The notes under the pieces were generated by a model. The model was given only the letters and a program-made list of their open reading frames with translations. It made no database searches and had not been told where the DNA came from. Below, in pieces: positions 2,073-22,802 of a stretch of 64,000 nucleotides of DNA (positions within the stretch are counted from its first letter, which is position 1; each line of letters opens with the position of its first letter). Position numbers and translations under genes: made by a program. Source of the stretch: an uncultured Candidatus Saccharibacteria bacterium (lineage in GTDB: Bacteria > Patescibacteriota > Minisyncoccia > Phycocordibacterales > UBA1006); NCBI GenBank assembly GCA_964601935.1, contig CAZROP010000002.1:7299-71298 (forward strand), written 5' to 3'.

Positions 2073-2100
2073 ATAAGGTTTTTGTGTATACTGGTCGTAT

Positions 2101-3468
2101 ATGGTAGTCACACGTTTTGCACCTAGTCCAACAGGGAATATCCATATAGGAGGCCTCCGGACGGCTTTATATGCATATGCCTATGCTCGTCAGAGTAGTG
2201 GAAGTTGTTTTCTGCGTATTGAAGACACTGATCAGAAGCGAGAGGTAGAGGGGGCAGCTGATCGTCTTGTGCCTCTGCTGGAATCCTTTGGGCTCTCATG
2301 GGACAATATTTATGTTCAATCACAACGAGCAAAGGCTGGAATTTATGCAAAGTTTGCACTCCAGCTGCTTGCAGAAGGAAAAGCTTTTTACTGTCAATGC
2401 GAAGCGAAAAATGCTAAAAAGGATGGTTACTCGGTAGAACTTCGTGACCCTTGTCGTGATCTAGGGCTCACTAGCGGTGCTATAAAACTTAGGACTCCTG
2501 ATAATGAAATTGTTACTTATTATGATTTCGTTTCTAAAAAAGATATTTCGTGGAATACGAGCGACGTTCGCGATGCAGCTTTGTTAAAAAGTGACGGAGT
2601 GTTTCCAACCTATCATTTGGCGGTGGCTGTGGACGATCATGAAATGGGCGTAACACACATATTCCGCGGGCATGATTGGCTGCCGAGTACACCTATTCAT
2701 CTACTGGTTTTCAAATATCTTGGATATGAGCTCCCAGCATTGGGTCACCTAACCGATATTTTAGATCCAGAAGGAGGCAAGCTCTCAAAGAGGAAGGGGA
2801 GCACATCATGCGAAGGACTGCTTGCTGATGGGTATTTACCTGCTGCGCTTATTAATTTCGTGGCGCTGTGTGGTTGGGCTCCCAAAGACAATAGCGAAAT
2901 GTATACATTGGAAAGTTTTGTGAAAGCGTTTAGTTTGGATGGAATTCAAAAATCAAATCCTGTTTTTAATCGAGACAAGCTTGACTGGTTTAACCGTGAA
3001 TATATTAAAAAACTTTCACATGATGAGCAGACAGATGCAATCCGTTCGTATCTACTGCAGCTTGATGGTTTCGATGAAGAAGTACTTCAGAAAATAGTTC
3101 CACTATTGATCGAGCGTATTTCCAAATGGTCTGATATGGAAATGATGATTACTGATGGGGAAGTCCAGTATTTTTTCACCGATCCGGTAGTGTCTAACGA
3201 TATGCTGCCAGGTAAAAACAACACCATCGAAGTTGCTCGAGAGAATCTGATCGAGATCGCAGCTTTACTGAATAAATACATGGGGAATTGGGAGGTCGAA
3301 TCTTTGAAAGAATACCTCATGCCGCTCGCAACAGAACTAGGTCGTGCGCAGAGTTTGTGGCCGCTACGTGTTGCGTTATCAGGGCGAGAAAAGTCTCCAG
3401 ACCCATTCACGTTGTTGTCGATACTAGGTGCCGAGACCTCACTACGTCGTATACACGGCTGTATATAA
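2101..3468 (+). CDS. gltX: glutamyl-tRNA synthetase
   Basis: 455 aa; class I motifs FAPSPTGNIHIGG (HIGH) and KLSKRKG (KMSKS); GluRS-like throughout. Confidence 0.9.
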   Translation: MVVTRFAPSPTGNIHIGGLRTALYAYAYARQSSGSCFLRIEDTDQKREVEGAADRLVPLLESFGLSWDNIYVQSQRAKAGIYAKFALQLLAEGKAFYCQCEAKNAKKDGYSVELRDPCRDLGLTSGAIKLRTPDNEIVTYYDFVSKKDISWNTSDVRDAALLKSDGVFPTYHLAVAVDDHEMGVTHIFRGHDWLPSTPIHLLVFKYLGYELPALGHLTDILDPEGGKLSKRKGSTSCEGLLADGYLPAALINFVALCGWAPKDNSEMYTLESFVKAFSLDGIQKSNPVFNRDKLDWFNREYIKKLSHDEQTDAIRSYLLQLDGFDEEVLQKIVPLLIERISKWSDMEMMITDGEVQYFFTDPVVSNDMLPGKNNTIEVARENLIEIAALLNKYMGNWEVESLKEYLMPLATELGRAQSLWPLRVALSGREKSPDPFTLLSILGAETSLRRIHGCI

Positions 3469-4159: not shown

Positions 4160-5266
4160 TTATTTTCGTTCTCCAACGTAGGACAGAGCCATGCGCTGTT
4201 CTTTTGGTTCGAATACGGTGATCTTGAAATTGTACGAATTACCGAGTGACAAGTGTTTCTTCAGGTCATCGTCAGATTTGAAGTCAGAGTTATGTACCAA
4301 GCCAGACACGCCTTCTTCGATTGATACCAGTGCACCGTGCTTGTTCATGCGAATGATCACTCCTGTTACTTCACTGCCGATAGTATACTTGTCTGAGGCT
4401 AGTTTCCATGGATTGGTTTTCAGAGCCTTGATGGATAGGCTGATTTTGCCATCCTTGATTTCGATGATTTTTGCGGTGACCTTGTCGCCAACCTTGAACA
4501 ATTTGCGAGGGTCGTCAACCAATGCCCAGTCAATTTCTGAAATATGGACCAGTCCTTCCAGCCCATCTTCAATCTTTAGGAATACTCCGAAATCTACCGT
4601 ACCACTGACAGTACAGGTAACCTCATCACCAATAGAGTAGCGCATAAGGATGTCAGATTTTTCTGCAGGAGTTGTGCCTTTTTCCGAGAAGATGAGCTTA
4701 CCCTCTTTGGCATTGCTAGAAATAATAGTGACCGTAATGGATTTGCCAGTCAATTTCTTCAGCTCGCGTAGGATTGCGTCCTTGCTGCCGTCGTCTACCT
4801 GTGGGTAGTGTGCTTCTGACAGTTGTGAAGCAGGAAGGAACCCTTCGATGCCCTGCCATTCGATAATCAGACCGCCCTTGTTTGCTGCCTTGATAGGTAG
4901 TATGAAAGGTGTTTTGTGCTTCACTGCTTCCTCCGCTTCTTTCCAGATGATTGCCTGACGAGCTTCTTTTAGAGACAATTCAATATAGCCATCTTCATTT
5001 TCCGGGTCGATAACTTTTGCCTTTACGGTGTCGCCGATGTTCAGATTTTTGATAATCTCGCGGGTATTCTGGAATTCGCGTCCGAGGATAACACCCGTAC
5101 CGTACGGGTTGATGTCTATATAGATAGATTTTGGTTGGATTGATATTACGGTTCCTTCGATAATTTCGTCGGCATGAATGATTTTGTGATCCTTGGTATT
5201 GACCAGATTCGCCATCATTTTGCTGGTTTCAGCCTTTGTGGTTTGGATAGATGTTGGATATGCCAT
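4160..5266 (-). CDS. rpsA: 30S ribosomal protein S1 (short, about 4 S1 domains)
   Basis: 368 aa; repeated S1 OB-fold segments (GTVISIQPKSIYIDI..., GDEVTCTVSGTVDFGVFLKI...). Confidence 0.8.
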   Translation of the reverse strand: MAYPTSIQTTKAETSKMMANLVNTKDHKIIHADEIIEGTVISIQPKSIYIDINPYGTGVILGREFQNTREIIKNLNIGDTVKAKVIDPENEDGYIELSLKEARQAIIWKEAEEAVKHKTPFILPIKAANKGGLIIEWQGIEGFLPASQLSEAHYPQVDDGSKDAILRELKKLTGKSITVTIISSNAKEGKLIFSEKGTTPAEKSDILMRYSIGDEVTCTVSGTVDFGVFLKIEDGLEGLVHISEIDWALVDDPRKLFKVGDKVTAKIIEIKDGKISLSIKALKTNPWKLASDKYTIGSEVTGVIIRMNKHGALVSIEEGVSGLVHNSDFKSDDDLKKHLSLGNSYNFKITVFEPKEQRMALSYVGERK

Positions 5267-5395
5267 AGTAAATAATTGTATGCGTAGTTCAGGATGCTGG
5301 CAGCACGAATGATGCCTCTTTATTGCAACCCAAAGACGACGTATATCACTAGATAATCTAACATATATTGGTGTTTTGGCAAGTATATTTGGTCA

Positions 5396-5545
5396 CTCCC
5401 TCTCCCTCTGGGAGAGGGTCGGGGTGAGGGGGTGTTCTCTTAAACATCGCAAAGAGACCTCATCCAAAATTGCTAGAAATATACTCCGCTATCGCTACAT
5501 TGTTTCAAATGCAATTTTCGCCCTCTCCTTTGTAGGAGAGGAGTG
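5396..5545. promoter_or_regulatory. divergent rpsA/rplU leader region with two SD/anti-SD-like hairpins
   Basis: perfect hairpin ccctctccc-tct-gggagaggg (about 5398-5418) followed by a G-run, and a second one cctctcct-ttgt-aggagagg (about 5522-5541). Confidence 0.3.
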
Positions 5546-5594
5546 TCCACCAGATATTGCCTTTTTGATAAAATCTGTTAGAGTATTGCTACTT

Positions 5595-5942
5595 ATGGCA
5601 AAGAAACCAACCACTAACGAGGCAGAATCTAAAGCATTTTCTGTTATAGAAACAGGCGGCAAGCAGTATATTGTGACCGCTGGACAGCCTTTGCGTATTG
5701 AAAAACTTCCTCAGGCAGAGGGCGAAACTATTACCTTTGACAAGGTTCTCCTGACTGTCGACGAATCGGGCGCAATCACTATCGGAACCCCGTATATCGA
5801 TGGCGCAACGGTAACCGCACAGGTAGAAACACAGGGGCGTTACAAGAAGATCCGTGTTATACACTTCAAATCAAAGTCTAACCGCCACAAGACCTACGGT
5901 CATCGCCAGCCATTCACTGCTGTGAAAATAGCTACAAAATAA
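5595..5942 (+). CDS. rplU: 50S ribosomal protein L21
   Basis: 115 aa from the internal ATG; FSVIETGGKQYIVTAGQPLRIEKL...GHRQPFTAVKI is the L21 family; the upstream part of the ORF-track frame contains the hairpins and is treated as leader. Confidence 0.8.
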   Translation: MAKKPTTNEAESKAFSVIETGGKQYIVTAGQPLRIEKLPQAEGETITFDKVLLTVDESGAITIGTPYIDGATVTAQVETQGRYKKIRVIHFKSKSNRHKTYGHRQPFTAVKIATK

Positions 5943-5953
5943 AGAATGTTTAG

Positions 5954-5982
5954 AAACCGCTCTGCTGACAGAGCGGTTTTTG
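5954..5982 (+). terminator. intrinsic terminator after rplU
   Basis: ccgctctg-ctga-cagagcgg followed by TTTTT. Confidence 0.6.
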
Positions 5983-5995
5983 ATATACTAGTATC

Positions 5996-7102
5996 ATGAT
6001 CAGTAATCGAACCATCATAGAGATATCTGCTGATGCGCTATGTCACAATGCGTTGACTCTTCAGAGTCAGTGCCGTCCTGGAACAGATGTTATGGTGGTG
6101 GTGAAATCGAACGCCTATGGGCATGGATTACTGCTGACTGCATGGGCGCTGCAGTCTATTGCAGATTGGTACGCAGTGGATGATATAGAGGAGGCCAAGC
6201 TTCTGCGGCAGCATGGTATCAAGCAGTCTATTCTGATACTGGGTTTTGTTCCCGAGGAGTGGTATCCTTTGGCGCGTACTCTGGGTGTTACTCTGACATC
6301 GCCATCACTGATTGCACTGCGTTGGGCAGTAAACCATGGGGTGCAGACTCATATAAAGATTGATAGTGGTTTGGGTCGTCAGGGGTTCCAGGGTGCTGAG
6401 TACGATGAGATAATCCAGTATCTACAACGACACATACCCGCCACAATCACCGGCGTGTACTCACATTTTGCAGTGGCTGATAATCCTGCAGAGCTAGAAT
6501 TTACGCGGCATCAGTATACTGTATTTATACAACGAAAACTAGAAATAGAGGCATTACTAGGCCGATCACTGCTGACCCACACTAGCGGTACATCGGGTGT
6601 GGTCTATAATCATGAATTTGACTGTGATATGGTGCGATTAGGTATTGGATTATACGGTGTTCTACCGTCACGCGAATTGATGGAGCATAATCCTGGTCTG
6701 CAACTACAGCCAGTTATGCAGTGGCGCGCACGATTATCAGAGATAAAGCATTTGCCAAAAGGGCATTCGATCGGATACGAGCGTACCCATATTCTGACCG
6801 AAGATTCTGTAATAGGCGTAGTTCCTGTTGGATACTGGCACGGTATACCTCGCGCATTATCTAATATAGGATTTGTCGAAATTCAGGGGCAGCGAGCCCC
6901 TGTCATCGGTAATATCTCTATGGATATGATGACGATTGATCTCACAAATATTGCAGGTACGACACTGGTAGGTGATTGGGTAACATTGATAGGGCAGAGT
7001 GTACCTGTGATGGAATTGGCAGAAATATCTGGAATCAGTCACTATGAATTGTTAACACGCATCAATCCGTTGATAGAGCGGAGATATAAAAAACTAGGAT
7101 AA
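5996..7102 (+). CDS. alr: alanine racemase
   Basis: 368 aa; PLP-lysine motif VVKSNAYGHG near the N-terminus. Confidence 0.85.
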   Translation: MISNRTIIEISADALCHNALTLQSQCRPGTDVMVVVKSNAYGHGLLLTAWALQSIADWYAVDDIEEAKLLRQHGIKQSILILGFVPEEWYPLARTLGVTLTSPSLIALRWAVNHGVQTHIKIDSGLGRQGFQGAEYDEIIQYLQRHIPATITGVYSHFAVADNPAELEFTRHQYTVFIQRKLEIEALLGRSLLTHTSGTSGVVYNHEFDCDMVRLGIGLYGVLPSRELMEHNPGLQLQPVMQWRARLSEIKHLPKGHSIGYERTHILTEDSVIGVVPVGYWHGIPRALSNIGFVEIQGQRAPVIGNISMDMMTIDLTNIAGTTLVGDWVTLIGQSVPVMELAEISGISHYELLTRINPLIERRYKKLG

Positions 7103-7636: not shown

Positions 7637-8129
7637 TGTCCTGACTGTTTTGCGACTGACCCCCTGCAGAACCCCCAGTACCGCCCATAATTTCCAAAAA
7701 CAAGTATTTCTCTTGTAGTTTTTGCTGGCTGTATGCTCCTGACCCCATACCCTCATAGGCATAGGACTTGAGGATATCAGACAGTACTGCCTGGGTGTAG
7801 TCTTTTCTTCCATGCAGTTCGAGAAACTGTTCGAGCCCAGCCGGTTTAAATCGGACAAGCATCGCATTGAGGATTCTGTCATTAGCCTCAATGCGAACCT
7901 GCATAGGTCGCAGGTCTACAGTGTGCACTTCTGTAATAAAGGGTTTAACCCAGGCCCAGCCTGTGTGCTCTAATACTGTGATACGACCTGTAGTTTTGTC
8001 AAAACTGTAGCCTAGCTCATAACTATCCACAAGTGTGACAAAAAATGTACGAATAGAGCATCCTCCTACTAAGAGGATGACAAGGGCTGATCCGAGGATA
8101 ACCCACTTTTTTGACCAAATGTTTTCCAT
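7629..8129 (-). CDS. membrane-anchored protein, possible short SPFH/band-7-like
   Basis: 166 aa; TM then LEHTGWAWVKPFITEV resembling the SPFH motif GLHFxIPFIDxV; stop overlaps the next start in ATGAATAA. Confidence 0.45.
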   Translation of the reverse strand: MENIWSKKWVILGSALVILLVGGCSIRTFFVTLVDSYELGYSFDKTTGRITVLEHTGWAWVKPFITEVHTVDLRPMQVRIEANDRILNAMLVRFKPAGLEQFLELHGRKDYTQAVLSDILKSYAYEGMGSGAYSQQKLQEKYLFLEIMGGTGGSAGGQSQNSQDNE

Positions 8130-8311
8130 TGTCTGTAGTTGTTTTTATAGATGATGCAAGGTTGAATTTTGCAATAAAACTACCATGATGACAATGAAAG
8201 TCAATATCAGCGGAACGATTGGCGTACACGGAGAGATACTTGACAAACAGTGATATGTATTTAGTGTTATTGTCAAGGTTTGATTATCTCATCTATTAAA
8301 AATACAAGGTC

Positions 8312-8794
8312 ATGACGAAGACTGATTATTTGATATTCGGGTTAGATCTGATTCTGGCAGGAACTATACTGTTTCGTGCTATCACGCAACTTTTGAGCGA
8401 GTTCCGCGATGTTCAACAGGAAGAAATTGTACCCAGTGATACCACAAAGACCGAGGATGGAGAAGTTGAGGCAAGACCCTTCGTGGAAACCCTCAGCTTG
8501 TTACCTGAGAGCTTCTGTGTCAATGTGCTTGGCCAGTTGCTTGTTAGTTCAGTCTCGGGATTCTTATTCTGGGTATTCATTCTGTGGGCGCTAGAGCCTG
8601 CGTTGGAAGGCGCGGGATACGCAACTACTGCCTATGCAGGATTGATATACACGGGCATTGTAGGTCTGGTGTACACTCCTGCATACCAGGGTTGGAGAAC
8701 CCCGACCTTCGTAAAGGGCTCTCTGATCATTGTGTGCATTATTGCAGCTTTGATGCATATACTTGCACTGGGTGTACTCGCTTTCTACTGGTAG
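8312..8794 (+). CDS. hypothetical polytopic membrane protein
   Basis: 160 aa, about 4 hydrophobic helices, no recognisable motif. Confidence 0.4.
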   Translation: MTKTDYLIFGLDLILAGTILFRAITQLLSEFRDVQQEEIVPSDTTKTEDGEVEARPFVETLSLLPESFCVNVLGQLLVSSVSGFLFWVFILWALEPALEGAGYATTAYAGLIYTGIVGLVYTPAYQGWRTPTFVKGSLIIVCIIAALMHILALGVLAFYW

Positions 8795-8810
8795 TATGTC
8801 ACGAGAGATT

Positions 8811-8885
8811 TTATAAAAACCACAAACATTTTTGTTTCGCTATTCTGAAATAGCTGACAGAATTTGATTGTGGTTTTTGATTTTG
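8811..8885. terminator. nested inverted repeats between convergent genes (probable bidirectional terminator)
   Basis: outer aaaaccacaa...ttgtggtttt, inner gctatt-ctga-aatagc. Confidence 0.4.
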
Positions 8886-12653: not shown

Positions 12654-12773
12654 AGTGATGTATTGAGAGATCGGATAACACGCATATTGTACCGCGCCAC
12701 CCTAGCAAACGTATGGGGATATGTGGTGGTCAGCCATGGGTATGGTCATTAGAAGAATAACGATAAAGCAAGA

Positions 12774-13121
12774 TCACTTCCTCAATGCGTTGATGGTCTG
12801 TGTCTGGTTTTCAATAATTTGTAGCATTTTTCTATTCTCATTAATTAACGATTGGTTGACCTCTAATATTTGTTCACGCTCTTCAATTTTTTGAGAATAC
12901 TCTTTGTAAGTCACAGAATTTATATGAAAAGAATCAATGACTAGTGTTGCCACCATAATTATCATCGTAATGAATGCCACAATGAAAATTCCTATAATTA
13001 GGTTGGTCTGCGTATCGTATCTTGTCAGGATTGCCTGTATTTCAGACTTGGGGTCAGAAAATTCAATTGAGGGATTATTGTTTTCTTTAAGATCTTTAGA
13101 GAATGTAATACTCTTTTTCAT
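12774..13121 (-). CDS. hypothetical small membrane/coiled-coil protein
   Basis: 115 aa; one TM (IIGIFIVAFITMIIMVATLVI) then a heptad-like C-terminus. Confidence 0.3.
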   Translation of the reverse strand: MKKSITFSKDLKENNNPSIEFSDPKSEIQAILTRYDTQTNLIIGIFIVAFITMIIMVATLVIDSFHINSVTYKEYSQKIEEREQILEVNQSLINENRKMLQIIENQTQTINALRK

Positions 13122-13125
13122 AAGT

Positions 13126-13341
13126 TTAGTAGACGCCTTTAATTACAATTACCTCTCCATCGACGTCCACTTCAAAATCTCGATTTCTGAATTGTGTGAA
13201 ATCTACCCCAGATATATTTACACCTTGTCCAAATCGAACCCCAGGCCCAAAAGTAACACCGCCTACGCGAGTGCGCTGCCTTGGCTCCACTGAGCCATCC
13301 GGATAAGTATTAAAGAGTGATTCAAAGTTAAGCCTTGCCAT
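13126..13341 (-). CDS. hypothetical Gly-rich small protein
   Basis: 71 aa from an internal ATG (the track start is GTG); 4-nt spacing to the next gene. Confidence 0.25.
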   Translation of the reverse strand: MARLNFESLFNTYPDGSVEPRQRTRVGGVTFGPGVRFGQGVNISGVDFTQFRNRDFEVDVDGEVIVIKGVY

Positions 13342-13391
13342 ATAGCAATCATTATACACCTTTTATATATTTAAAATCCGGTTTGTAGTCA

Positions 13392-13401
13392 CCCCCCCCC
13401 C
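13392..13401. repeat. homopolymeric C10 tract (G10 on the coding strand of the flanking – strand genes)
   Basis: read directly: acccccccccc immediately 3' of the stop of the 13401..13757 gene and 40 nt upstream of the next start. Confidence 0.85.
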
Positions 13402-13757
13402 TAGTCCGCAGTTTTGAAAGTCCATTCATTAATATTTAGTAAGACCAAAGCATCATCAGGCTCTCCCCAGATTGAAGAGCTTTTATCCCAATAAAAGAAG
13501 TGTGAGTTGTTGCTCTGGTTTTTGCTAACCTTGTATGAGCCTGCTTTAGTATAAATAACAACCAGGTCGTCTTTTTTAACTTCCTGATCTTGAAACCAGA
13601 AGGTTTCAGACACCCGACTGGAGACACTTGTCTCAGAAGATTTATTAGACTTAAAAATAGCATATTGCCCTACGTCAGTATCTTCCAAAACCCTCAGAAC
13701 AACGCGTTCCTTTTGTATATTGCCGATATCTTCAATTCCCATAATTTTTAATCGCAT
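13401..13757 (-). CDS. hypothetical protein
   Basis: 118 aa, no motif recognised. Confidence 0.3.
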   Translation of the reverse strand: MRLKIMGIEDIGNIQKERVVLRVLEDTDVGQYAIFKSNKSSETSVSSRVSETFWFQDQEVKKDDLVVIYTKAGSYKVSKNQSNNSHFFYWDKSSSIWGEPDDALVLLNINEWTFKTAD

Positions 13758-13760
13758 ACA

Positions 13761-14210
13761 TTATTTTTTTCTATGTAACCAGTCAGGATCTATGAAAGCT
13801 AAGGCAAAACTTATTACACATAATACAAAAATTCCTAACCGATATTGCTCCAAATCTGAGACAAAAATTAAGCCCCCCAATAATCCGCCTATAGCGTATA
13901 GAAGAGATCTGACTGTTACAGAATCTTTTAACCCTATTAAGCGTTCAGTTAATACGGCAAGTTCTTCACTTTTTTTATAATAATCTTCTTTAAATATTTT
14001 TAATTCAGTCAGATCGCGTCCTAGACGGGAAATTTCGCCTAACAGGATCTTGGTCACTAACCTTAAGTTTTTCGCATTTTTTATTTCCTCTTCCGTTATA
14101 ATGCTGTTCAGACCTGACCATGGAGTTTTGGCGTTTGCAAGGGACTTGATATCTTCGGCTTCAAATGAGACTGTCGGCTCCTCGTCAGGTTTTCCTATTT
14201 TTCTAGCCAT
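13761..14210 (-). CDS. hypothetical protein with C-terminal TM hairpin
   Basis: 149 aa; coiled-coil-like middle, C-terminal GGLLGGLIFVS...IFVLCVISFALAFI. Confidence 0.35.
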   Translation of the reverse strand: MARKIGKPDEEPTVSFEAEDIKSLANAKTPWSGLNSIITEEEIKNAKNLRLVTKILLGEISRLGRDLTELKIFKEDYYKKSEELAVLTERLIGLKDSVTVRSLLYAIGGLLGGLIFVSDLEQYRLGIFVLCVISFALAFIDPDWLHRKK

Positions 14211-14751
14211 ATTATATTAAGCTGCAGTTTAAATGTAAATACATAAAATAAGTAAGAGTTGTTTTGCCAATGTTGCCACAAGAGGACTTAGCTCGAAGTT
14301 TTGAAGTTTTTATCAATAATATAGGCTTATTTCAGACGTGGACCGAAAATATGCGCAATTTTATGACTAAAGATAGGGAAGAGTCAGTTTCGACTATTAA
14401 ATTATAGGGCACCCGTGATATAATTGCTATATATGATTACAAATAGGAAAGATAATCTCACAGATGTTATACAAGCTTCGCCGACAAAACCGAGCTCAGT
14501 CCCATCTACTGATTCGCCCAGTAAACCTGGTCCTCAGCAGGTGGTAGATAATACCGGACAGGTTGTAACATTGGGAAAATAGGGGTGTTCTAATCGTTTT
14601 TAGTATATAGGAAAAAACACTCGAAGTTTTACGGGTTTTCTATTGTGTATTTTAAACAAGCGAATACAGGCAAGGCAAATTCTTTTCCCAAAAAGAAGAA
14701 TTTGACGATGTCTGTAGATTCGCTTGTTACAAAATTTATAAACTCCTACGA

Positions 14752-15561
14752 TTATGGGGTGTCTGGCCTACTAGGATGAGTCTCTTCGGTAGCTGGTTCA
14801 GCGCGAGTGGCAAACAGTCCTGACTCAAATTCAAGCTTACGAGCTGGTATTATCACTTTTGTTAAATAGGTAATCAAGTTGTCTAGAATGTCTTTACATT
14901 CTCCAGTGAGGTTTTGGTACTTTTCAGATACTTGTAAATCCATAAAATTCCATTCGAGTCCTACTAGACCCTCAGCGGTTACTAAAAGTATTAATTCTCT
15001 AATGTAATTCTCAGCTTCCCCCTGATTTTTCACAAGGAGGTGTCGAGTAATCTTTAGGTATAAAAGTATAATTTTGTCTGAGGATTCGTGGAAAATATCC
15101 TTACTTAGAGAGTCAGTTTTTTCTGACATGTACATATATTGGTCAAACTTTTCATAATCTCCGGTTAGTAGTAATGCCTCGCATAGGTTCGTAAAAATAC
15201 GTGGATCCGGTCTTATGTAGAATGCTTCCACCCACTTTTTACCAGCGTGTACGTAGTGGTGTCTATGAAGTGCTTGTGCGGCTGCTTCATCCAGGCTAAT
15301 AAATCGAGTTTCAACTAACTGTCGTAATGCATAATATGCCGCAAATATCCCGAGCAGTAAGGTGGCAGCTTGGATCATTAGATTAAGTATAGCTACTTTC
15401 TCTGATAGGTCAGAGGGCTTAGTCGCTAAAAATATGATATATGTGATTACAGAGAGAATAACTAAAATCCCTATCAGTACGGTCTGAAATCTTTTATTAA
15501 ATGAGGGGTAGGGGAGTATCTTTTCCCAAAAATTCTTCGCCACTTTCTTCATACTACTCAT
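14752..15561 (-). CDS. hypothetical membrane protein
   Basis: about 269 aa from the ATG (the track start is TTG); two N-terminal TM helices. Confidence 0.4.
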   Translation of the reverse strand: MSSMKKVAKNFWEKILPYPSFNKRFQTVLIGILVILSVITYIIFLATKPSDLSEKVAILNLMIQAATLLLGIFAAYYALRQLVETRFISLDEAAAQALHRHHYVHAGKKWVEAFYIRPDPRIFTNLCEALLLTGDYEKFDQYMYMSEKTDSLSKDIFHESSDKIILLYLKITRHLLVKNQGEAENYIRELILLVTAEGLVGLEWNFMDLQVSEKYQNLTGECKDILDNLITYLTKVIIPARKLEFESGLFATRAEPATEETHPSRPDTP

Positions 15562-15775
15562 CAAGATTAAAAATTACTTTCCCTTTACCAAAGGCAGCAA
15601 TTCGTTCTAGTGAAGAAGGCAGCATTCTGTGGCAATTGCGTATTATTAAGGTCGCACCTGATTGCGCTGCAAGTGCAGCAAAACGCTCCAGCGTGGCTGG
15701 AAGATACTTTGGAGCATCGACAGATACTCCGCCCCCAAATGCAATTATTCTTTCTATCGATTGAGGTAAAAACAT
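15554..15775 (-). CDS. small internally repeated protein (hypothetical)
   Basis: 73 aa; two copies of S(I/L)ERI(I/A)AFG(G/K)G; overlaps the downstream gene by 8 nt; competing +strand ORFs make it uncertain. Confidence 0.25.
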   Translation of the reverse strand: MFLPQSIERIIAFGGGVSVDAPKYLPATLERFAALAAQSGATLIIRNCHRMLPSSLERIAAFGKGKVIFNLDE

Positions 15776-15824
15776 ACAAAGGCCAAGGTGAATTAGCTAC
15801 GTAATCTTACCATAACGCCCGTGT

Positions 15825-16607
15825 TTAACAATTCAATGCCTTCCTCCATCCAGCCTGGATCGCATCCTGTTCAGAGCAAAACCACTTCTCACCCTCTGAT
15901 TCGTCGATGATGGTAGCATTATAGGACCTGCATCCTTGGACATGGTAGATCTTCTCTTTCTTTGCATTGGTACTGATATTTCCTTTGATGGTACAAGAGG
16001 AGGTTGGAGCAGGTACGGTAGCTTGAGCTACTGGAGTAGCGACAATTGCTGTAGGTACAACCGTTTTCAGTGTCCCAGAAGCCGTATTTTGACACGTAGA
16101 GCCCCATAATCCTTTCTTTTGGTCTGATGCCTGTTTCTGTGCACTCTTGAATTCTACTTGATATTTGTAGGGTAGATCATAGGTATACTCGTAAGCATAT
16201 CCATCCTTGATCATAGAGAGGTTTACATTGGTCCCATTTGATAGGAGTACATATCGTAAAAGACGGCCGTACTTGTCTTTATCCCCCTGAGTATCATCTT
16301 TTTCTAGGAATACCTTTTTACCAGTCAGCAAAGACTTTGCCTTATTAGATGCTTCTTTACCAAAACACTCTACTGGTTTACGAGGATCTACCGTTTCTGG
16401 TGTGTTTACACCAATGAGACGTATACGTTCTTTTTTGCCACTGATCATTACATCGATGGTATCTCCATCCACAACCCTTACTACTTTGTAGAGTTTGGAT
16501 GATTGAGCGGTCTGGGTGGTAATAGGCACTGTACTGGTTGTTTGAGCCAGTAGCAGGCTCGGGTTAAATGTGAGGGCGAGGGTTAGGGTGATGAGAAGGG
16601 TTTTCAT
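15825..16607 (-). CDS. secreted thermonuclease (staphylococcal nuclease/SNase-like) with C-terminal Cys-containing domain
   Basis: 260 aa; signal peptide; VVRVVDGDTIDV...RIRLIGVNTPE...YGRLLRYV matches the SNase motifs; C-terminal IYHVQGCRSY...WFCSEQDAIQAGWR. Confidence 0.75.
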   Translation of the reverse strand: MKTLLITLTLALTFNPSLLLAQTTSTVPITTQTAQSSKLYKVVRVVDGDTIDVMISGKKERIRLIGVNTPETVDPRKPVECFGKEASNKAKSLLTGKKVFLEKDDTQGDKDKYGRLLRYVLLSNGTNVNLSMIKDGYAYEYTYDLPYKYQVEFKSAQKQASDQKKGLWGSTCQNTASGTLKTVVPTAIVATPVAQATVPAPTSSCTIKGNISTNAKKEKIYHVQGCRSYNATIIDESEGEKWFCSEQDAIQAGWRKALNC

Positions 16608-16612
16608 ATTGA

Positions 16613-17224
16613 TTATTTAATATTAACTTTAGCATCACAAGAGTTGCTTCCTGTAGGTTCAGCCTTTAAGAAGTCGCACAACTTGTAAACTTCAAAGTTC
16701 TGCCAGTTTATCTTTTCGAATAAGTTTCGGTCCATTGAATAGTATAGCGCTAAATTATTTGAAACATTGCCATACTTGTCAGTAGTGTCAGCGTAATAGT
16801 GGATATCTATATCCTGAACCTTAGGATATATGGAGTATATATCCTGGAAGAGTTTGCCAGAGACTTGTCCTGTCTCTCGATAGAGCGATTTAGCAGTAAG
16901 AAAGTCTCCAACATGTAATTTCACAATAACTTGCTTTGAATCTACTCCAGAATCAACCATCTCTGCATGTACATAGGTAAAGGTTTTTGAAGTGCGAGAT
17001 ATGGTTGTCGCCGTTCCTCGTTCAAAAGATTGTGCATATATTGATACTATAGGGGTTGCATCTACTTTTTTCTGAACCTCCTTAGCTTCTTCGCCTGGAT
17101 CAAAGAAATTATTAATACGACCTATTACAATAATGAATAGAATAATTCCTCCTATGAGTGTGAGGATTGGGTGTTTTTCAAACCAGGTGGGTTGTTCTGA
17201 ATCTGGGGTTGGGTGTGGGTTCAT
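16613..17224 (-). CDS. membrane-anchored hypothetical protein (first gene of the nuclease operon)
   Basis: 203 aa; single N-terminal TM; 5-nt gap to the nuclease gene. Confidence 0.4.
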   Translation of the reverse strand: MNPHPTPDSEQPTWFEKHPILTLIGGIILFIIVIGRINNFFDPGEEAKEVQKKVDATPIVSIYAQSFERGTATTISRTSKTFTYVHAEMVDSGVDSKQVIVKLHVGDFLTAKSLYRETGQVSGKLFQDIYSIYPKVQDIDIHYYADTTDKYGNVSNNLALYYSMDRNLFEKINWQNFEVYKLCDFLKAEPTGSNSCDAKVNIK

Positions 17225-17513
17225 AAATGGTGCTTGATAGGGCTTTTAATAAGTTCATGAAAGGCTTCATACAAAAAGCCCGCCACGAGTAGAGACCGAA
17301 GTCTCTCATACCTGTTTCCAGGTATGGCCTATCAAGCAAACCCCATGACGGGTTCTTTATGCTTGATAGGGCTTACAAAAATTGACCATGCCTAGCGGGT
17401 TTCGCTAGGGTTAGGTCCCTATTAACTTGTCCAAGGTAGTATATACCTTTTTGGTCCAAAATCTATGGGTGTGCGTTAAAAAAGATAGGTGTATAATGAA
17501 TAAGCGATAGCTT
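17225..17513. promoter_or_regulatory. structured divergent intergenic region with a repeated TGCTTGATAGG motif and three hairpins
   Basis: motif at about 17232 and 17361 (direct) and about 17326 (inverted); hairpins gagaccgaagtctc, catacctg-tttc-caggtatg, cctagcg-ggttt-cgctagg; TGTATAAT -10 at about 17490-17497. Confidence 0.35.
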
Positions 17514-17909
17514 ATGAAGTGCCAATTTGTCAAAGCAAATAAGGACCAATGCAGATGTCATGCGGTAAGCGGTGATAGCTTTTGCTTTAATCATTCTGAA
17601 AAGACAAAAAACCAGAAGCTGAATGCGGTTCGTAAGGGTGGATATGCCATGAAGTTTAAACCCAGCATTATGACCAGTCCGATACCTTTGCGTACAGGAG
17701 CGGATATTCTGGGCCTGCTTGAAGATATTGTAGGCGGTCTCAAAGTTGGCCCCATTACACCACAAAAAGCTAACTCTCTAGTGAGTATTGCAGGACTTGC
17801 GTTGAAAGTGCAAGAAACAAGTCAGGGGGTGAAAGAGCCTATGACGGTGTTTGATTTGTTGAAGGAGAAGTTGCATAAGGATAAAGTAAAAGAGCAGGCT
17901 CTAATTTAA
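17514..17909 (+). CDS. hypothetical protein with N-terminal Cys/His cluster (possible Zn-ribbon regulator)
   Basis: 131 aa; CQFVKANKDQCRCH...CFNH; first gene of a tightly spaced 4-gene operon. Confidence 0.35.
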   Translation: MKCQFVKANKDQCRCHAVSGDSFCFNHSEKTKNQKLNAVRKGGYAMKFKPSIMTSPIPLRTGADILGLLEDIVGGLKVGPITPQKANSLVSIAGLALKVQETSQGVKEPMTVFDLLKEKLHKDKVKEQALI

Positions 17910-17927
17910 TATACTAATAGATAAATT

Positions 17928-18836
17928 ATGAATAAATATAAAATACAACAAATAATCTCAACAATGGCAGAGTGCGCTGTTCTGAGCGGCAGCAGCGACT
18001 CCTCTTTTGTGGAGGGTATGTATAAGTTTTCACATGTTGGTTATTCACCATCCAGTGGTTGGCGGGATCGTGCTTGGGTTGCAGAGGCTGTGGTCGAGGG
18101 TTTAGACATTAATGACGCGTATCGTAAATTCTCTCAAGGTCTTACTAAAATTACCTCAAGGATTTCACTCGTTGGTCAAGCTTGTATTGATTATCATAGA
18201 GAATCTTTCTTGATCCATAAGATGGGGAGTTCTGTTGCACTTTTTCGTTATATCCATCGAGGAGAAGGTGTTGGTTTAATGTTTATGGATAAGGAAGTTA
18301 AAGCCTTAAGGATATTGCTGTTAGATAAATTTTTGCCCGATAACTTTTTTCTATACTGGAACGAAGCTACGAATATAAGTAATTACTCTGCAAAGCTTCT
18401 ATTAATGTTTTCAGCGCTTGAGACTATTATCACAAAAGATCAGACTTCTAAGAATTGGCAGTTATTAAACGATATTCTGGGCAGTAACGTGGTAAAAGAC
18501 TGTTTTGGGGAAAGGGGTAACTCAAGCATAGGATTAAGAAATCGCTTAGTACACGGAGAATACTTCTCAGTGGGAGACTTTGATAAAGATTATGTAACTC
18601 TTATACATGACGGTGTGATTAAATATATAAATAACAATATTTTGCAGGCTAAACTAATTGAGGAAGACGTCGTCTCTCCACAGCGAGGTTTTGAAGAGGT
18701 CGATCAATTGAGGTCTTATATAAAGTTAGCTGATAGCACAACTGAATTTTCAATTGAAGCTCTTGTCAGAGACGCCTCAAAAGACTTTCAAAATCCTGAA
18801 ACCTTTGAGTATGTGGCGCCAGGTCTCCATTATTAG
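17928..18836 (+). CDS. HEPN-motif protein A (putative RNase, toxin-like)
   Basis: 302 aa; C-terminal IGLRNRLVHGEY fits the HEPN Rx4-6H motif; paralogous to the next gene. Confidence 0.5.
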   Translation: MNKYKIQQIISTMAECAVLSGSSDSSFVEGMYKFSHVGYSPSSGWRDRAWVAEAVVEGLDINDAYRKFSQGLTKITSRISLVGQACIDYHRESFLIHKMGSSVALFRYIHRGEGVGLMFMDKEVKALRILLLDKFLPDNFFLYWNEATNISNYSAKLLLMFSALETIITKDQTSKNWQLLNDILGSNVVKDCFGERGNSSIGLRNRLVHGEYFSVGDFDKDYVTLIHDGVIKYINNNILQAKLIEEDVVSPQRGFEEVDQLRSYIKLADSTTEFSIEALVRDASKDFQNPETFEYVAPGLHY

Positions 18837-18844
18837 AATATATT

Positions 18845-19891
18845 ATGAAAAAAATATTTATTGGATTTGTAGGTCAAAGTGACGAGCTCACTGAAAAAAT
18901 CTTAGAAATACAAGAGGGTTATGAGATATGGAATTTGAAACTGTTTAGTCTCGAAGAATTCACCAAAATCGTTAAAGACAGAATACCGCCCGTGAATAAT
19001 AACGTTATAAATAATTATATTGTTGAGGAGTATAACGAGAACTATGGTATCACAGAAGAGTATTTTTCTCGCTGTACGTGGGGCTTATTTATACCAGATA
19101 GCTTGGGTGATGTTTCTGGTGATAGTTTTTCAGAGACTATGTTTTTATTAAATCTTTTTTCGCCATCTTTCCTGTATCCAATATTCTACGTAACTGACTT
19201 CGGTGTAACGGTAAAAAGGTATGATAATAGAAAGATACTCTCCTTTGGAAACTCACAAGGACAGGCAAAGTTATTTACTTCTTCGAACTTCGTAGACTTT
19301 TTTAAAACCCTGCTTCCGTCATCGGCATATAGCGGTACTTGGCAGCTTGATCGTGTTCAGGTTTGGAAGAAAGAAGACTGGAGATTGTTCGTTGCAGGCA
19401 TGCTATTCTCTGACTTACGAGTCTATGATAATAGCAAAAGTGCGCTGACGTGGCAAAGAGAATCAGTGGAAATGAGTATGGTACTAGAATCACTATTTAT
19501 AGCTGATGATACCAATAGTGAAGAAATAGGGTACAGGTTAAGGAAAAGAATTGCTGTACTGCTTTCAGTGTATTTTCCTAATATTGAAAATGATATTAAA
19601 GAACTTTATAAGGCTAGAAGCGAGTTTGTTCATGGATCATTTTATCTTAAGCTTGCAAAGAGTAGTGACCAGTTACCTACGCCCAACTTTAACTTGTTAC
19701 ACCAACAAACGGAGTTTGTGCGTTGGTCGTTAATTGGGTGCCTTCATTTGTTTCAAGTTATCAATAACGGTTCTAAATACCCCCAGAAGTCAGTAATGAG
19801 TGTGTTAGAAGCTGCTATCGTTGACGTTAAACTTCGTGAAAGTATATTAAATGATGTAAGTGAAGTGTTTTCTCTCTTGCCAACTATTTAA
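18845..19891 (+). CDS. HEPN-motif protein B (paralog of A)
   Basis: 348 aa; C-terminal ELYKARSEFVHGSF (Rx4HG) in the same relative position as in A; 8-nt spacing. Confidence 0.5.
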   Translation: MKKIFIGFVGQSDELTEKILEIQEGYEIWNLKLFSLEEFTKIVKDRIPPVNNNVINNYIVEEYNENYGITEEYFSRCTWGLFIPDSLGDVSGDSFSETMFLLNLFSPSFLYPIFYVTDFGVTVKRYDNRKILSFGNSQGQAKLFTSSNFVDFFKTLLPSSAYSGTWQLDRVQVWKKEDWRLFVAGMLFSDLRVYDNSKSALTWQRESVEMSMVLESLFIADDTNSEEIGYRLRKRIAVLLSVYFPNIENDIKELYKARSEFVHGSFYLKLAKSSDQLPTPNFNLLHQQTEFVRWSLIGCLHLFQVINNGSKYPQKSVMSVLEAAIVDVKLRESILNDVSEVFSLLPTI

Positions 19892-19915
19892 ATTGGCTCA
19901 TAATTGCTTTATCCT

Positions 19916-21079
19916 ATGAAAAAACCGCAAAAAGAAGCAAGTAAGCCTCCAATAAAAAGGAAGACAAGATCATCCAAATCTGCTTTGAGTTATATAAGTG
20001 ATTATGCAGGTAGGTGGCTGGATGATCAGATAGGATTCTTTAAGGAGTGTAAGATTTCTCAAGAAGAGGTAGACAGTGCGAAATTGCATTGGCATGAGCT
20101 TGCCAAAATATACGATGACCATAAGTCTAGGGAAGTTTTGCTATCGACAACAGCAAATACGATCTCTCAAATCATCCAGGGAATGTCAAAGGTCCACAGT
20201 GTTCGTTTAAGAATAAAAGATCCCGCTAGTCTGATTGGAAAAATTGTAAGAAAGCGCAAGGCAGATCCTAATAGAGATATAAATTATAATAACTACAAAG
20301 ACGAAATTACAGATTTAATCGGAATAAGGATACTACACTTGTTAAAATCGGATTGGGAAAGTATCCATAGAGGTCTTTTTGATCATTTCTCTGCTAAAGG
20401 GAAGCCAGTAGCTTATATTCGTGAGGGCGATTCTAATGAGTGGATTACTATGTATAAAAACGCAGGTTGTAGGGTTGAAGATCACGAACGTAGATATAGG
20501 TCAGTTCACTATGAGGTGAAAGTAGGTATCACGAAAGAGCCTATAATTGCTGAAATTCAGGTCAGGACAATCCATGAAGAAAGTTGGAGTGAGCTTGATC
20601 ACGCCATCAATTATCCCGTACAGGCGTCACTAATCATCCAGAATCTTTTGAGCACCCTAAACCAACTTGCTGGGATATCAGATGAGCTAAGCGCATACAC
20701 AATGTACGTTTTTAATGCGTTCGAAGAACAAAAGGCGGAAATAGAGATGCTCCAAAATAGTTACTCAGCAAAACTTTCTGAAACGGAGGAGTTAATCAAC
20801 AGGTTAGAGGTTAAAGAAGCAGAAAAGACTAAAATAAAAGAAAAGCTTAAAGATTTAGAAACAAAAGGTAACTCAGCTATGGGCTTTTCAGAAAGTAATA
20901 CCGTTTTTTCGACCTCAGGTTTGCAACTTAGGACAAACTTTGCTGCCCCTATCTTTGGCAGCAATAACCACGACCCGACATCAGCTGTAAGACGGTGCGC
21001 AAGGTGTAAAGGTTTTTTGTTTGGTGGTTCCATCGGGAGTAATTTATGCGCTGTTTGTTCCGTTGCTTATAGAGTATAG
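19916..21079 (+). CDS. RelA/SpoT-homolog (RSH) synthetase-fold nucleotidyltransferase with C-terminal Cys4 element (toxSAS-like)
   Basis: 387 aa from the ATG (the track start is TTG); motifs SLIGKIVRKRK, DLIGIRILHL, RYRSVHYEV, EIQVRTIHEESWSELDH match the RelA_SpoT synthetase core; then a coiled-coil and CARCKG...CAVCS. Confidence 0.7.
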   Translation: MKKPQKEASKPPIKRKTRSSKSALSYISDYAGRWLDDQIGFFKECKISQEEVDSAKLHWHELAKIYDDHKSREVLLSTTANTISQIIQGMSKVHSVRLRIKDPASLIGKIVRKRKADPNRDINYNNYKDEITDLIGIRILHLLKSDWESIHRGLFDHFSAKGKPVAYIREGDSNEWITMYKNAGCRVEDHERRYRSVHYEVKVGITKEPIIAEIQVRTIHEESWSELDHAINYPVQASLIIQNLLSTLNQLAGISDELSAYTMYVFNAFEEQKAEIEMLQNSYSAKLSETEELINRLEVKEAEKTKIKEKLKDLETKGNSAMGFSESNTVFSTSGLQLRTNFAAPIFGSNNHDPTSAVRRCARCKGFLFGGSIGSNLCAVCSVAYRV

Positions 21080-21135
21080 GTAAGTATGCTAATTAGACTT
21101 TCTACTTAACTCTTCTCTTGATACCGAAAAATCAT

Positions 21136-22761
21136 ATGGACATTAACATTTTAATGGATAGTTTGAACAGTGATAGGCAGAGTGTGGAAGACGCTAAGGA
21201 TATTAAGTATGTTATCTACGCCCGGAAGTCTACGGATGACATGGGTAAGCAGGCTCGGTCCTTGGCAGATCAGGTGTCAGAGTGTCAGCAATACGCACTC
21301 ACCCACAATCTGCGTTGTGACCCGACCCCTATTATAGAGTCTGAGTCAGCAAAAGAGCCCGATATTCGACCCAAGTTTAGACAAATGATGGAAGACCTCA
21401 AAAGAGGAAAGTATGGAGGAGTTATTGCCTGGCACCCTGATAGATTATCTCGAAACATGAAGGACGCAGGGGAGATTATAGATCTCGTGGACAAGAGTGT
21501 TATTCGTGACTTGAAGTTCGTAAGTTTTGTATTTGATAATACTACTAGCGGAAAGATGCTTTTAGGTATGACCTTTGTACTATCTAAACAGTACTCAGAT
21601 GCTTTAAGTGACAACGTTAACCGTGGTAATAGAAAGAGTGTTGAAGAGGGAAAGTATATCAATAAAGCGAAACACGGTTACTACAAGGACCCTAACCAGT
21701 ATCTAAGACCTGATACCCATAATAATAATTTTATTCTGATAAAAACTGCTTTTAGAATGCGCCTGGATGGAGCTGGGTTGGATGAAATTGTTAAGTACCT
21801 AAACGAAAATAACTACTCAAAAGCAAATACTGGTCAGTATAGAACAATATTTAAAATGACGAAGCAGCGTGTATCAAGCTTTCTCTCTGATCCGATTTAT
21901 ACAGGTGTATACCGTTATGGCGGAATAGAAGCAGTTAACCTTGTTGAAAAGTATCATTTTGAGCCAATGATAACTGTTGAGGAGTTTGCAAAAATAAATA
22001 AACGAATATTCCCAAGCCTTGGTAGGTCCGCTCGTAAGAAGGATGGGGTACGAGCAGATTTTATGGTTAAAAGAGTTCGCTGTAGTTTTTGTGGCGAAGC
22101 AATGTCTACAGGTATTAGTGGAAGCAGAGCAGATTCCGGCGAAAAGACAGAGTACTTCTATTACCGATGTGAGACCGAAAAGTGCGTCAGGCATAACAAG
22201 TCGACTCGCGCAAAGGTTATTGTTGATTATGCAGTTGAGTTCCTGCAAACATTACCGTTCTCATCAGAGGCAAGTTACGATCACTACTTGAAGGAAATGG
22301 ACAGGTTGAGTACACAAAAAGTAACCAAATCTAAAGAAAGGGTAAAAAGTTTGCAGACAAAGAGAGTATTTTTAGTAGAAAGAGAAAAAAAGGTAAAAGA
22401 AATGCTACTTAACGAAAAAGATGGTCGTATTAAAGATGAGTTTCGAGGGGATTTTGAACTGATAAAAGATCAGGTCTCTAAAATAGAACAAGAAATAACT
22501 GATCTAAAAGAGATAATTACTGGCGGTAAAACTGCTCCGGCTACCTATAGCGAGTTCCTCGAAGTTTTAAAGAAAATGCCTTTATTTATTAGGGAAATTA
22601 AGAGTTTAAGCGAGTTAGATTTTTTTATGAAAAAAATCTTCTCGAACCTCACTGTTAATGGTAAAAAAGTCATAAAAACAACGCTTGCTGCGCCCTTTGA
22701 TAAGTTGTATAAACTAAGTAATCCTGCTTTGTTGCCCGATAAGGACTCGAACCTCAATTAA
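21136..22761 (+). CDS. large serine recombinase (integrase)
   Basis: 541 aa; resolvase catalytic motif YVIYARKSTDD, recombinase domain, Zn ribbon CSFCGE...YYRCETEKC, coiled-coil C-terminus; last 10 codons overlap tRNA-Gln. Confidence 0.85.
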   Translation: MDINILMDSLNSDRQSVEDAKDIKYVIYARKSTDDMGKQARSLADQVSECQQYALTHNLRCDPTPIIESESAKEPDIRPKFRQMMEDLKRGKYGGVIAWHPDRLSRNMKDAGEIIDLVDKSVIRDLKFVSFVFDNTTSGKMLLGMTFVLSKQYSDALSDNVNRGNRKSVEEGKYINKAKHGYYKDPNQYLRPDTHNNNFILIKTAFRMRLDGAGLDEIVKYLNENNYSKANTGQYRTIFKMTKQRVSSFLSDPIYTGVYRYGGIEAVNLVEKYHFEPMITVEEFAKINKRIFPSLGRSARKKDGVRADFMVKRVRCSFCGEAMSTGISGSRADSGEKTEYFYYRCETEKCVRHNKSTRAKVIVDYAVEFLQTLPFSSEASYDHYLKEMDRLSTQKVTKSKERVKSLQTKRVFLVEREKKVKEMLLNEKDGRIKDEFRGDFELIKDQVSKIEQEITDLKEIITGGKTAPATYSEFLEVLKKMPLFIREIKSLSELDFFMKKIFSNLTVNGKKVIKTTLAAPFDKLYKLSNPALLPDKDSNLN

Positions 22762-22802
22762 CGGTACCAGAAACCGCTGTCCTACCATTAGACGATCGGG
22801 CA
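22732..22802 (-). tRNA. tRNA-Gln (anticodon CTG)
   Basis: hand-folded cloverleaf: acceptor TGCCCGA/TCGGGCA, T-arm TGAGG-TTCGAGT-CCTTA, anticodon loop TTCTGGT; no encoded CCA. Confidence 0.8.

Follow-up and report, generated by a model that had tools for sequence, protein, structure and literature searches.

Our analysis concerns positions 17514 to 22802 of a 64,000-nucleotide stretch of contig CAZROP010000002.1 (assembly GCA_964601935.1, from an uncultured Candidatus Saccharibacteria bacterium), and the whole of that stretch is called the window below. The segment holds five consecutive open reading frames (ORFs), which encode a small zinc-finger protein (ORF1), two HEPN proteins (ORF2 and ORF3), a RelA/SpoT homologue (RSH) enzyme (ORF4) and a large serine recombinase (ORF5), and it ends in a tRNA-Gln gene. 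Our preferred reading, adopted with moderate confidence, is that a small integrative element was inserted at the tRNA-Gln gene by its serine recombinase, that the segment represents its cargo end, and that the cargo consists of independent single-gene defence-type modules. The families to which the genes belong travel separately elsewhere, and for this reason we see a stack of independent defence-type genes rather than one four-gene system. The modules are evolutionarily independent and are probably functionally independent as well. The genome that hosts the element is of the candidate-phyla-radiation (CPR; Patescibacteria) type.

This reading is carried by a survey of 182 other loci, which were scanned by tblastn and with profile hidden Markov models built from the four family alignments; the ORF2 family was detected in 87 of them, the ORF3 family in 25, the ORF4 family in 69 and the ORF1 family in 1. 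Loci were fetched from GTDB species genomes (21 loci, ORF3), from metagenomes (80, ORF2), from IMG/VR (63, ORF4) and from two plasmids, and the contigs of individual homologs were examined in addition. No two of the ORF2, ORF3 and ORF4 families shared any of the 182 loci, and the window alone holds more than one of them. Scans of viral contigs with ORF4 alone and with the ORF2-family and ORF3-family alignments (A1 and A2) also returned nothing, and the ORF1 family appeared in the other surveyed loci as a single weak match, confined to the zinc finger (L165). The first-pass annotation had proposed one new operon-level system, a proposal that the lack of any co-occurring family pair in these loci and the separate, recurrent contexts of the families speak against. 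Its more specific suggestions fared no better: a HepT/MntA-like module with the RSH enzyme as its nucleotidyltransferase would pair HEPN and RSH genes, which co-occur nowhere in the survey beyond the window, and a toxSAS toxin neutralized by HEPN partners is at odds with the long members of the ORF4 family (≥280 aa, 48 loci), which have no conserved adjacent gene on the same strand.

Each family was found in settings of its own. Genes of the ORF2 family lie between hsdM and hsdS of type I restriction–modification (R-M) operons, with 3-nt spacing, or directly 3′ of an EcoRI-like methylase and a ParB/GmrSD-HNH nuclease, and solo copies were seen in a genome of 3.8 Mb as well as in an island of a Nocardia genome. 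The ORF3 family lies no more than 8 kb from a homologous serine recombinase in 11 of its 25 loci, and its neighbours include a BsuBI/PstI R-M system, type I R-M genes, a Shedu SduA_C-like fragment, a NucS_C-like nuclease and proteins of 694–830 aa without an assigned family. A DUF4209 protein, which belongs to the HEPN clan, is encoded directly upstream of the ORF3-family gene in 2/25 loci (L018 and L029). At the first of these, a 965-aa ORF (L018, 6177–9074) fuses a DUF4209 protein of ~600 aa in frame to an ORF3-family protein and sits 3′ of an EcoRI-like methylase and a GmrSD-type nuclease; at the second, the DUF4209 gene (L029, 6173–7990) adjoins the ORF3-family gene (7884–8879). The ORF4-family gene was found alone on pXO1 of B. 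anthracis and on the 5-kb Paracoccus plasmid pMARC1, in prophage-type contigs (the 63 from IMG/VR) and in unrelated chromosomal settings.

The survey also revealed a subfamily of short proteins (<280 aa) with a RelA/SpoT domain. In 22 IMG/VR loci (within L158–L181) the gene for a ParA/MinD-like ATPase always stands immediately upstream of the short RSH gene, the two overlapping by a few bases (for example, L165, 6761–7864 and 7875–8573). The pairing of short RSH protein and ATPase is conserved as a module of two genes, whereas the long subfamily, which includes ORF4, consists of single genes.

ORF2 and ORF3 were examined by structure prediction, and both models match HEPN folds, including HepT chains of 130–150 aa. 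The first-pass annotation had called both proteins HEPN and had reported an Rx4H motif in each, and the motif was borne out too, its arginine and histidine being invariant across alignments of 30 sequences for each family. The ORF2 family comprises ~200 clusters at 37–46 % identity across the full length, and its alignment keeps G-L-R204-x-R206-L-x-H209-G-E-Y212 invariant. In the AlphaFold model of ORF2 (predicted local distance difference test score, pLDDT, 86.6), the N-terminal domain is rich in beta structure, the core is helical, and the C-terminal part is small and of beta/alpha type. Its best Pfam match is HEPN_MAE_28990 (PF18737; E=5e-4, 20.7 bits against a gathering cutoff of 26.8), followed below threshold by HepT-like (0.016; 15.4 bits against a cutoff of 23.5) and DUF4209 (0.088). 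Only 1/30 family members matches PF18737, and 1–2/30 match either the PF18737 or the HepT-like model. ORF2 probably belongs, as a divergent protein, to the HEPN group of MAE_28990 type; fold, motif and context all fit this placement, although the cutoff of the sequence model is missed.

ORF3 has no match in Pfam, NCBIfam, PHROGs or PADLOC, and a single one of 30 family members gives a marginal match to RiboL-PSP-HEPN (E=0.049). The family comprises ~150 clusters at 40–55 % identity across the full length, with the alignment pattern R258-S-x-F-x-H263-G264, in which R258, H263 and G264 are invariant. In the model (pLDDT 88.5) the N-terminal domain is of alpha/beta type and the C-terminal half is long and helical, and by its predicted structure this is a HEPN family without a library model. 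Searches of plasmids by tblastn with ORF2 and ORF3 matched nothing. A paralogous relationship between the two proteins, as claimed in the first-pass annotation, was considered and rejected: BLASTP gave E=1.8, hhalign of the two 30-sequence family profiles gave a probability of 0.2 %, and the domain layouts are unlike, with a beta-rich N-terminal domain in ORF2 and an alpha/beta one in ORF3. The two are related at the level of the HEPN superfamily fold only.

ORF4 is a RelA/SpoT homologue of the small-alarmone-synthetase type. Pfam RelA_SpoT matches residues 103–240 (E=1.8e-16), phrog_2211 matches at 1.8e-42, and an alignment of 35 family sequences shows R103, K105, D137 (in ITDLIGIR), Y198-R-S-x-H202 and E217 (in AEIQVRT) to be invariant. 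The core motifs and the terminal CxxC…CxxC noted at first sight (here C365 to C385) are both upheld. Downstream of the enzyme domain come a coiled coil (about residues 253–321, from Pfam coiled-coil matches) and a low-complexity tail that differs among homologs. Across the family the enzymatic N-terminus is conserved and the C-terminus hypervariable; a tail zinc ribbon like that of ORF4 is present in only ~5/35 aligned members, and a YXXY motif is not conserved among the 35. Weak matches were found between ORF4 and ‘GTP pyrophosphokinase’ genes of mycobacterial prophages (27.5 % identity), and between 23/35 family members and the PADLOC single-gene candidate PDC-S33 (best E=2e-6). Given the conserved N-terminus, the hypervariable C-terminus, the single-gene arrangement and the location on mobile elements, we infer that ORF4 may be an effector that inhibits itself in the manner of fused CapRel.

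ORF1 belongs to a family of which 371 representative homologs were collected, each of ~120–130 aa. The family alignment shows invariant C3, C13, C24 and H27 together with a conserved AVxKGG motif, and members weakly match zf-C3Hc3H (‘potential DNA-binding domain’) and DUF5763. ORF1, whose C-terminus is helical, is probably a small zinc-finger, nucleic-acid-binding regulator. A tblastn search of phages with ORF1 matched nothing. The L165 match, which lies beside an RSH gene, was rejected as a family member: it is a lipoprotein-like ORF of 64 aa that has the CCCH knuckle alone in common with ORF1.

The layout of the segment supports the view of an integrated element. The ORF coordinates (Table 1) confirm the earlier description of co-directional genes on the + strand with 8–38 nt spacing, the gaps from ORF1 through ORF5 being, in order, 18, 8, 12 and 38 nt, and ORF1 to ORF4 are real genes, since full-length homolog families exist for all four. 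The large serine recombinase and the tRNA-Gln site that had been placed directly downstream were likewise substantiated. ORF5 matches the Pfam domains Resolvase (1.3e-22), Recombinase (1.2e-12) and Zn_ribbon_recom (1.6e-3), the integrase family phrog_95 (2.5e-62) and XisF/Ccr-like NCBIfam models, carries the catalytic serine in a YARKST motif, and overlaps the ARAGORN-predicted tRNA gene by 31 nt at its 3′ end. Recombinase genes homologous to ORF5 adjoin or overlap tRNA-Tyr, Asp, Ala, Ser and Gln genes in other loci. In L013 (tRNA-Tyr, 1784–1870; recombinase ORF, 1802–3448) and in L028 (tRNA-Asp, 4728–4804; recombinase ORF, 4777–6345), the 3′ end of the recombinase ORF overlaps the 3′ part of the tRNA gene, and this overlap suggests that in these elements and in that of the window the tRNA 3′ end is supplied by the element upon integration.

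Base composition is a further point in favour of an integrated element. The G+C content is 0.37–0.41 from ~12 kb to 23 kb and 0.49–0.50 at 23–25 kb; the AT-rich segment of the first-pass annotation is therefore real, but it begins at ~12 kb, ~5 kb to the left of the start then noted. Contigs carrying the exact same proteins represent the same organism and the same island. A scan for promoters and terminators performed no better than on shuffled sequence.

Table 1. Coordinates of the genes, motifs and RNA features of the island, and of LOOT RNA instances in other surveyed loci
Feature	Sequence	Position	Strand	Description
ORF1	Window	17514-17909	+	131 aa; CCCH zinc-finger protein
ORF2	Window	17928-18836	+	302 aa; beta-rich N-terminal domain, then MAE_28990-like HEPN domain (probable)
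RNRLVHGEY motif (ORF2)	Window	18537-18563	+	R204, H209
ORF3	Window	18845-19891	+	348 aa; alpha/beta N-terminal domain, then helical HEPN domain (predicted)
RSEFVHG motif (ORF3)	Window	19616-19636	+	R258, H263
ORF4	Window	19904-21079	+	391 aa (387 aa from alternative ATG at 19916); stand-alone RSH synthetase
SYNTH domain (ORF4)	Window	20210-20623	+	D137 at 20312-20314, E217 at 20552-20554
Zinc ribbon CxxC-x13-CxxC (ORF4)	Window	20996-21058	+	C365-x2-C368-x13-C382-x2-C385
ORF5	Window	21118-22761	+	547 aa; large serine recombinase (integrase)
tRNA-Gln (CTG)	Window	22731-22802	-	ARAGORN; Rfam tRNA 57 bits; probable integration target
LOOT RNA	Window	17291-17417	-	Rfam RF03000
LOOT RNA	L013	9635-9780		Covariance model
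LOOT RNA	L016	3991-4114		Covariance model
LOOT RNA	L018	10647-10772		Covariance model
LOOT RNA	L028	9822-9941		Covariance model
LOOT RNA	L035	2302-2428		Covariance model
LOOT RNA	L036	5475-5596		Covariance model
LOOT RNA	L052	4420-4540		Covariance model
LOOT RNA	L043	1396-1516		Covariance model

Other explanations of the gene array were weighed against these data. An unlikely, though arguable, one is that the cargo serves the element itself, the HEPN proteins being addiction-type toxins that stabilize the island and the RSH enzyme making (p)ppGpp like the housekeeping small alarmone synthetases RelP/RelQ and so adjusting host physiology. RelP and RelQ are the nearest solved relatives of the ORF4 family, members of this family reside on plasmids with toxin–antitoxin (TA) genes, such as pMARC1 with BrnTA, and homologs of ORF3 are common on recombinase elements. 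However, no conserved antitoxin-like partner was found beside any of the three families, the embedding of the ORF2 family in R-M operons is a defence context, and the hypervariable C-terminus of the RSH enzyme fits the sensor of an arms race better than a metabolic enzyme.

We consider it improbable that ORF2 and ORF3 pair up to form a hetero-oligomeric RNase site between two HEPN proteins, independent of the RSH gene. HEPN RNases work as dimers with composite Rx4-6H sites, and such a pairing would suit the gap of only 8 nt between the two genes and the DUF4209 protein, a different member of the HEPN clan, that is fused to or adjacent to the ORF3-family protein in L018 and L029. That upstream partner is nevertheless of another family than ORF2, 23 of the 25 ORF3-family loci have no HEPN neighbour, and an ORF3-family gene occurs in 0/87 ORF2-family loci.

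Still less probable is a single system of four genes, in which the RSH enzyme signals to or modifies the HEPN RNases, in the way of HepT/MntA or of cyclic-nucleotide systems, or in which the HEPN proteins neutralize a toxic RSH enzyme. Such a system would agree with co-directional genes whose gaps of 8–38 nt probably place them on one transcript, with extra N-terminal domains in ORF2 and ORF3 that could bind a ligand, and with the known control of HEPN toxins by nucleotidyltransferases (PMC7641770). It is opposed by the absence of any co-occurring pair in the other loci, by an RSH family that lacks a conserved partner, by HEPN families that occur without a nucleotidyltransferase neighbour, and by the size of ORF2 and ORF3 (302 and 348 aa, with extra domains) compared to HepT chains of 130–150 aa; a single system is disfavoured because co-occurrence is lacking and each family is self-sufficient. 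The least probable version, in which, in this lineage, a nucleotide signal made by the RSH enzyme, or its pyrophosphorylation or other modification of a target, would switch on both HEPN RNases through their N-terminal domains as one working unit, by analogy with cyclic-oligonucleotide signalling to Csm6 but built from an alarmone synthetase, is unlikely because co-occurrence elsewhere is entirely lacking.

Several observations weigh against our preferred reading of a stack of independent defence-type modules on an integrated element. The sampled homologs are only 35–55 % identical, and collections beyond those covered here could contain a closer relative that has the same array of four genes. 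The very tight gene spacing also fits a functional operon. ORF2 scores under the Pfam cutoff for HEPN, and no HEPN model recognizes the sequence of ORF3. The matches of ORF4 in the PDB, by sequence and by profile, are to RelP/RelQ only and to no solved toxSAS chain, ORF4 is nearer by sequence to the non-toxic RelP/RelQ than to any solved toxSAS, and it matches no PADLOC model itself. At the left end, where an att repeat would mark the boundary of the element, direct repeats were sought and the tRNA region was compared by blastn with short words, but no att repeat and no remnant of the tRNA came to light; serine recombinases require just a few shared bases. Finally, activity, toxicity and phage protection are predictions for all three families.

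Under the reading of independent modules, the tight spacing would reflect co-transcription of the stacked cargo with the recombinase rather than a shared mechanism. ORF2 and ORF3 would each be a latent RNase of the abortive-infection (Abi) type, gated by its N-terminal domain; upon a trigger, which could be infection or the loss of a partner, RNA cleavage would stop growth, as Abi proteins do. In ORF4, the coiled coil and the variable tail at the C-terminus, which in this protein is a zinc ribbon, would restrain the enzyme; once triggered, it might act like fused CapRel and pyrophosphorylate either a nucleotide or the 3′ ends of tRNAs. ORF1 would be a small zinc-finger regulator.

Our study revealed an additional feature to the left of ORF1, a LOOT RNA (Rfam RF03000), named for the lineages OD1, OP11 and TM7, in keeping with the CPR affiliation of the homologs. 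Its match reaches 80.9 bits (gathering score, 46.4) and covers model positions 1–121 of 121, and it lies 97 nt upstream of ORF1 at the left edge of the divergent intergenic region. All loci were searched with a covariance model built in this analysis from six LOOT instances, by which the copy in the window scores 107 bits. LOOT was found in 7/13 non-redundant loci that bear the recombinase and in 1/85 others (Fisher p=9e-7); when restricted to loci of ≥9 kb, the counts were 7/12 and 1/27 (p=4e-4). It always lies 0.2–6.2 kb 5′ of the recombinase gene, from which it is divergent in 7/8 elements, and in the recombinase loci with LOOT the 3′ end of the recombinase gene abuts a tRNA. A co-oriented ORF begins 5–89 nt after the RNA in 9/9 instances; the encoded proteins are mutually non-homologous, and most are membrane-anchored, 8/9 having an N-terminal hydrophobic segment. 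LOOT may belong to the element, or it may be a gene of the host that flanks it.

The distance from the LOOT RNA to the tRNA gives an element span of ~5.5 kb, which is very small. To the left, a run of ORFs on the − strand (12700–17224) has no family matches, includes several products with hydrophobic segments and shares the G+C content of the island (0.37–0.41), and the element may reach as far as ~12.7 kb, in which case LOOT and a divergent promoter region would lie midway along it. This AT-rich block also contains, downstream of LOOT and on the opposite strand to ORF1–ORF5, the gene (15825–16607, −) for a secreted or lipoprotein-like staphylococcal-nuclease protein (SNase-LTD) with a C-terminal extension, which matches the PADLOC candidate C3a212 ‘SNc+LTD’ (E=1e-50). 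A 22-nt imperfect direct repeat (TGCTTGATAGGGCTT...) is also present upstream of ORF1, at 17231–17252 and 17360–17381, the copies being 129 nt apart; one copy falls inside the LOOT match and the other between LOOT and an ORF of 203 aa.

If the reading of independent modules is true, two HEPN families, one MAE_28990-like and one without a library model, would be added to the likely single-gene defence or abortive-infection effectors, together with a plasmid- and prophage-borne RSH family of CapRel-like layout, and all would figure as mobile cargo in CPR bacteria, a group in which immune systems have been little mapped. No family of the three is recognized by PADLOC v2, which makes them reasonable subjects for experimental screening. 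The finding would be a modest one, unsurprising to a specialist; the new architecture proposed at the outset is unsupported, which leaves a mobile RSH family and two HEPN families that have been little described, all of them likely single-gene effectors. It also carries a caution, as tightly packed, co-directional genes on a mobile element need not be one system. The observation that the orphan LOOT RNA travels with tRNA-targeting serine-recombinase elements gives this RNA a first genetic context and may prove more useful.

Compared with known systems, ORF2 stands closest to the MAE_28990/MAE_18760-like HEPN proteins (PF18737), with which it shares its best Pfam match, the Rx4H motif and the HEPN fold. 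Anantharaman et al. (2013; PMC3710099) described an operon context of a DNA methylase and a ParB/DUF262-type nuclease for MAE_28990 HEPN, and genes of the ORF2 family are likewise found 3′ of such a pair. The ORF2 family differs in its beta-rich N-terminal and own C-terminal parts and in its frequent position between type I hsdM and hsdS. ORF2 and ORF3 were also compared with solo Abi HEPN proteins and RNases embedded in R-M systems, namely the AbiA C-terminal domain, AbiD/F, AbiJ and AbiU2, and with the logic of PrrC/RloC; neither protein belongs at the sequence level to an Abi family in Pfam, PADLOC or PHROGs. From the type VII TA system HepT/MntA the gene array differs in that the neighbouring enzyme has an RSH fold and is not a minimal Pol-beta nucleotidyltransferase, in the 2–3 times greater length of ORF2 and ORF3 than of HepT, and in the pattern after the histidine, which is HGEY or HGSF and not HxY. 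No nucleotidyltransferase neighbour was seen in the 87 and 25 HEPN homolog loci, and neither ORF2 nor ORF3 is a member of HepT/MntA.

ORF4 shares a SYNTH domain and its catalytic residues with the toxSAS enzymes (FaRel, FaRel2, PhRel, PhRel2 and CapRel; PMC7229694), but its family has no conserved antitoxin neighbour and so departs from the bi- or tricistronic arrangement of toxSAS (Jimmy et al., 2020). The ORF4 family resembles fused CapRelSJ46 in being a single gene on mobile elements and prophages with a variable C-terminal extension, and in CapRel too the enzymatic N-terminus is conserved while the C-terminus is hypervariable (PMC9712102). The autoinhibitory, zinc-finger-like ‘pseudo-ZFD’ of CapRel contrasts with a true zinc ribbon in ORF4, which few members of the ORF4 family possess, and the family further differs in lacking the conserved YXXY motif of CapRel and in having a long coiled coil between the enzyme and the tail. 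Plasmid matches of the ORF4 family come from Bacillus, Clostridium, Fusobacteria and alpha- and beta-proteobacteria, a host range that matches the distribution of the fpRel subgroup (Atkinson et al., 2011; PMC3153485). Judged by distribution only, ORF4 may be of the fpRel type; that survey describes no members from CPR bacteria.

The element as a whole resembles other tRNA-targeting large-serine-recombinase elements in its Resolvase, Recombinase and zinc-ribbon domains, in the recombinase gene that abuts a tRNA and in the small cargo between. It differs from them in its size of ~5.5 kb, in having no detected att repeat and in the LOOT RNA gene, which was found 5′ of the recombinase in 8 elements.

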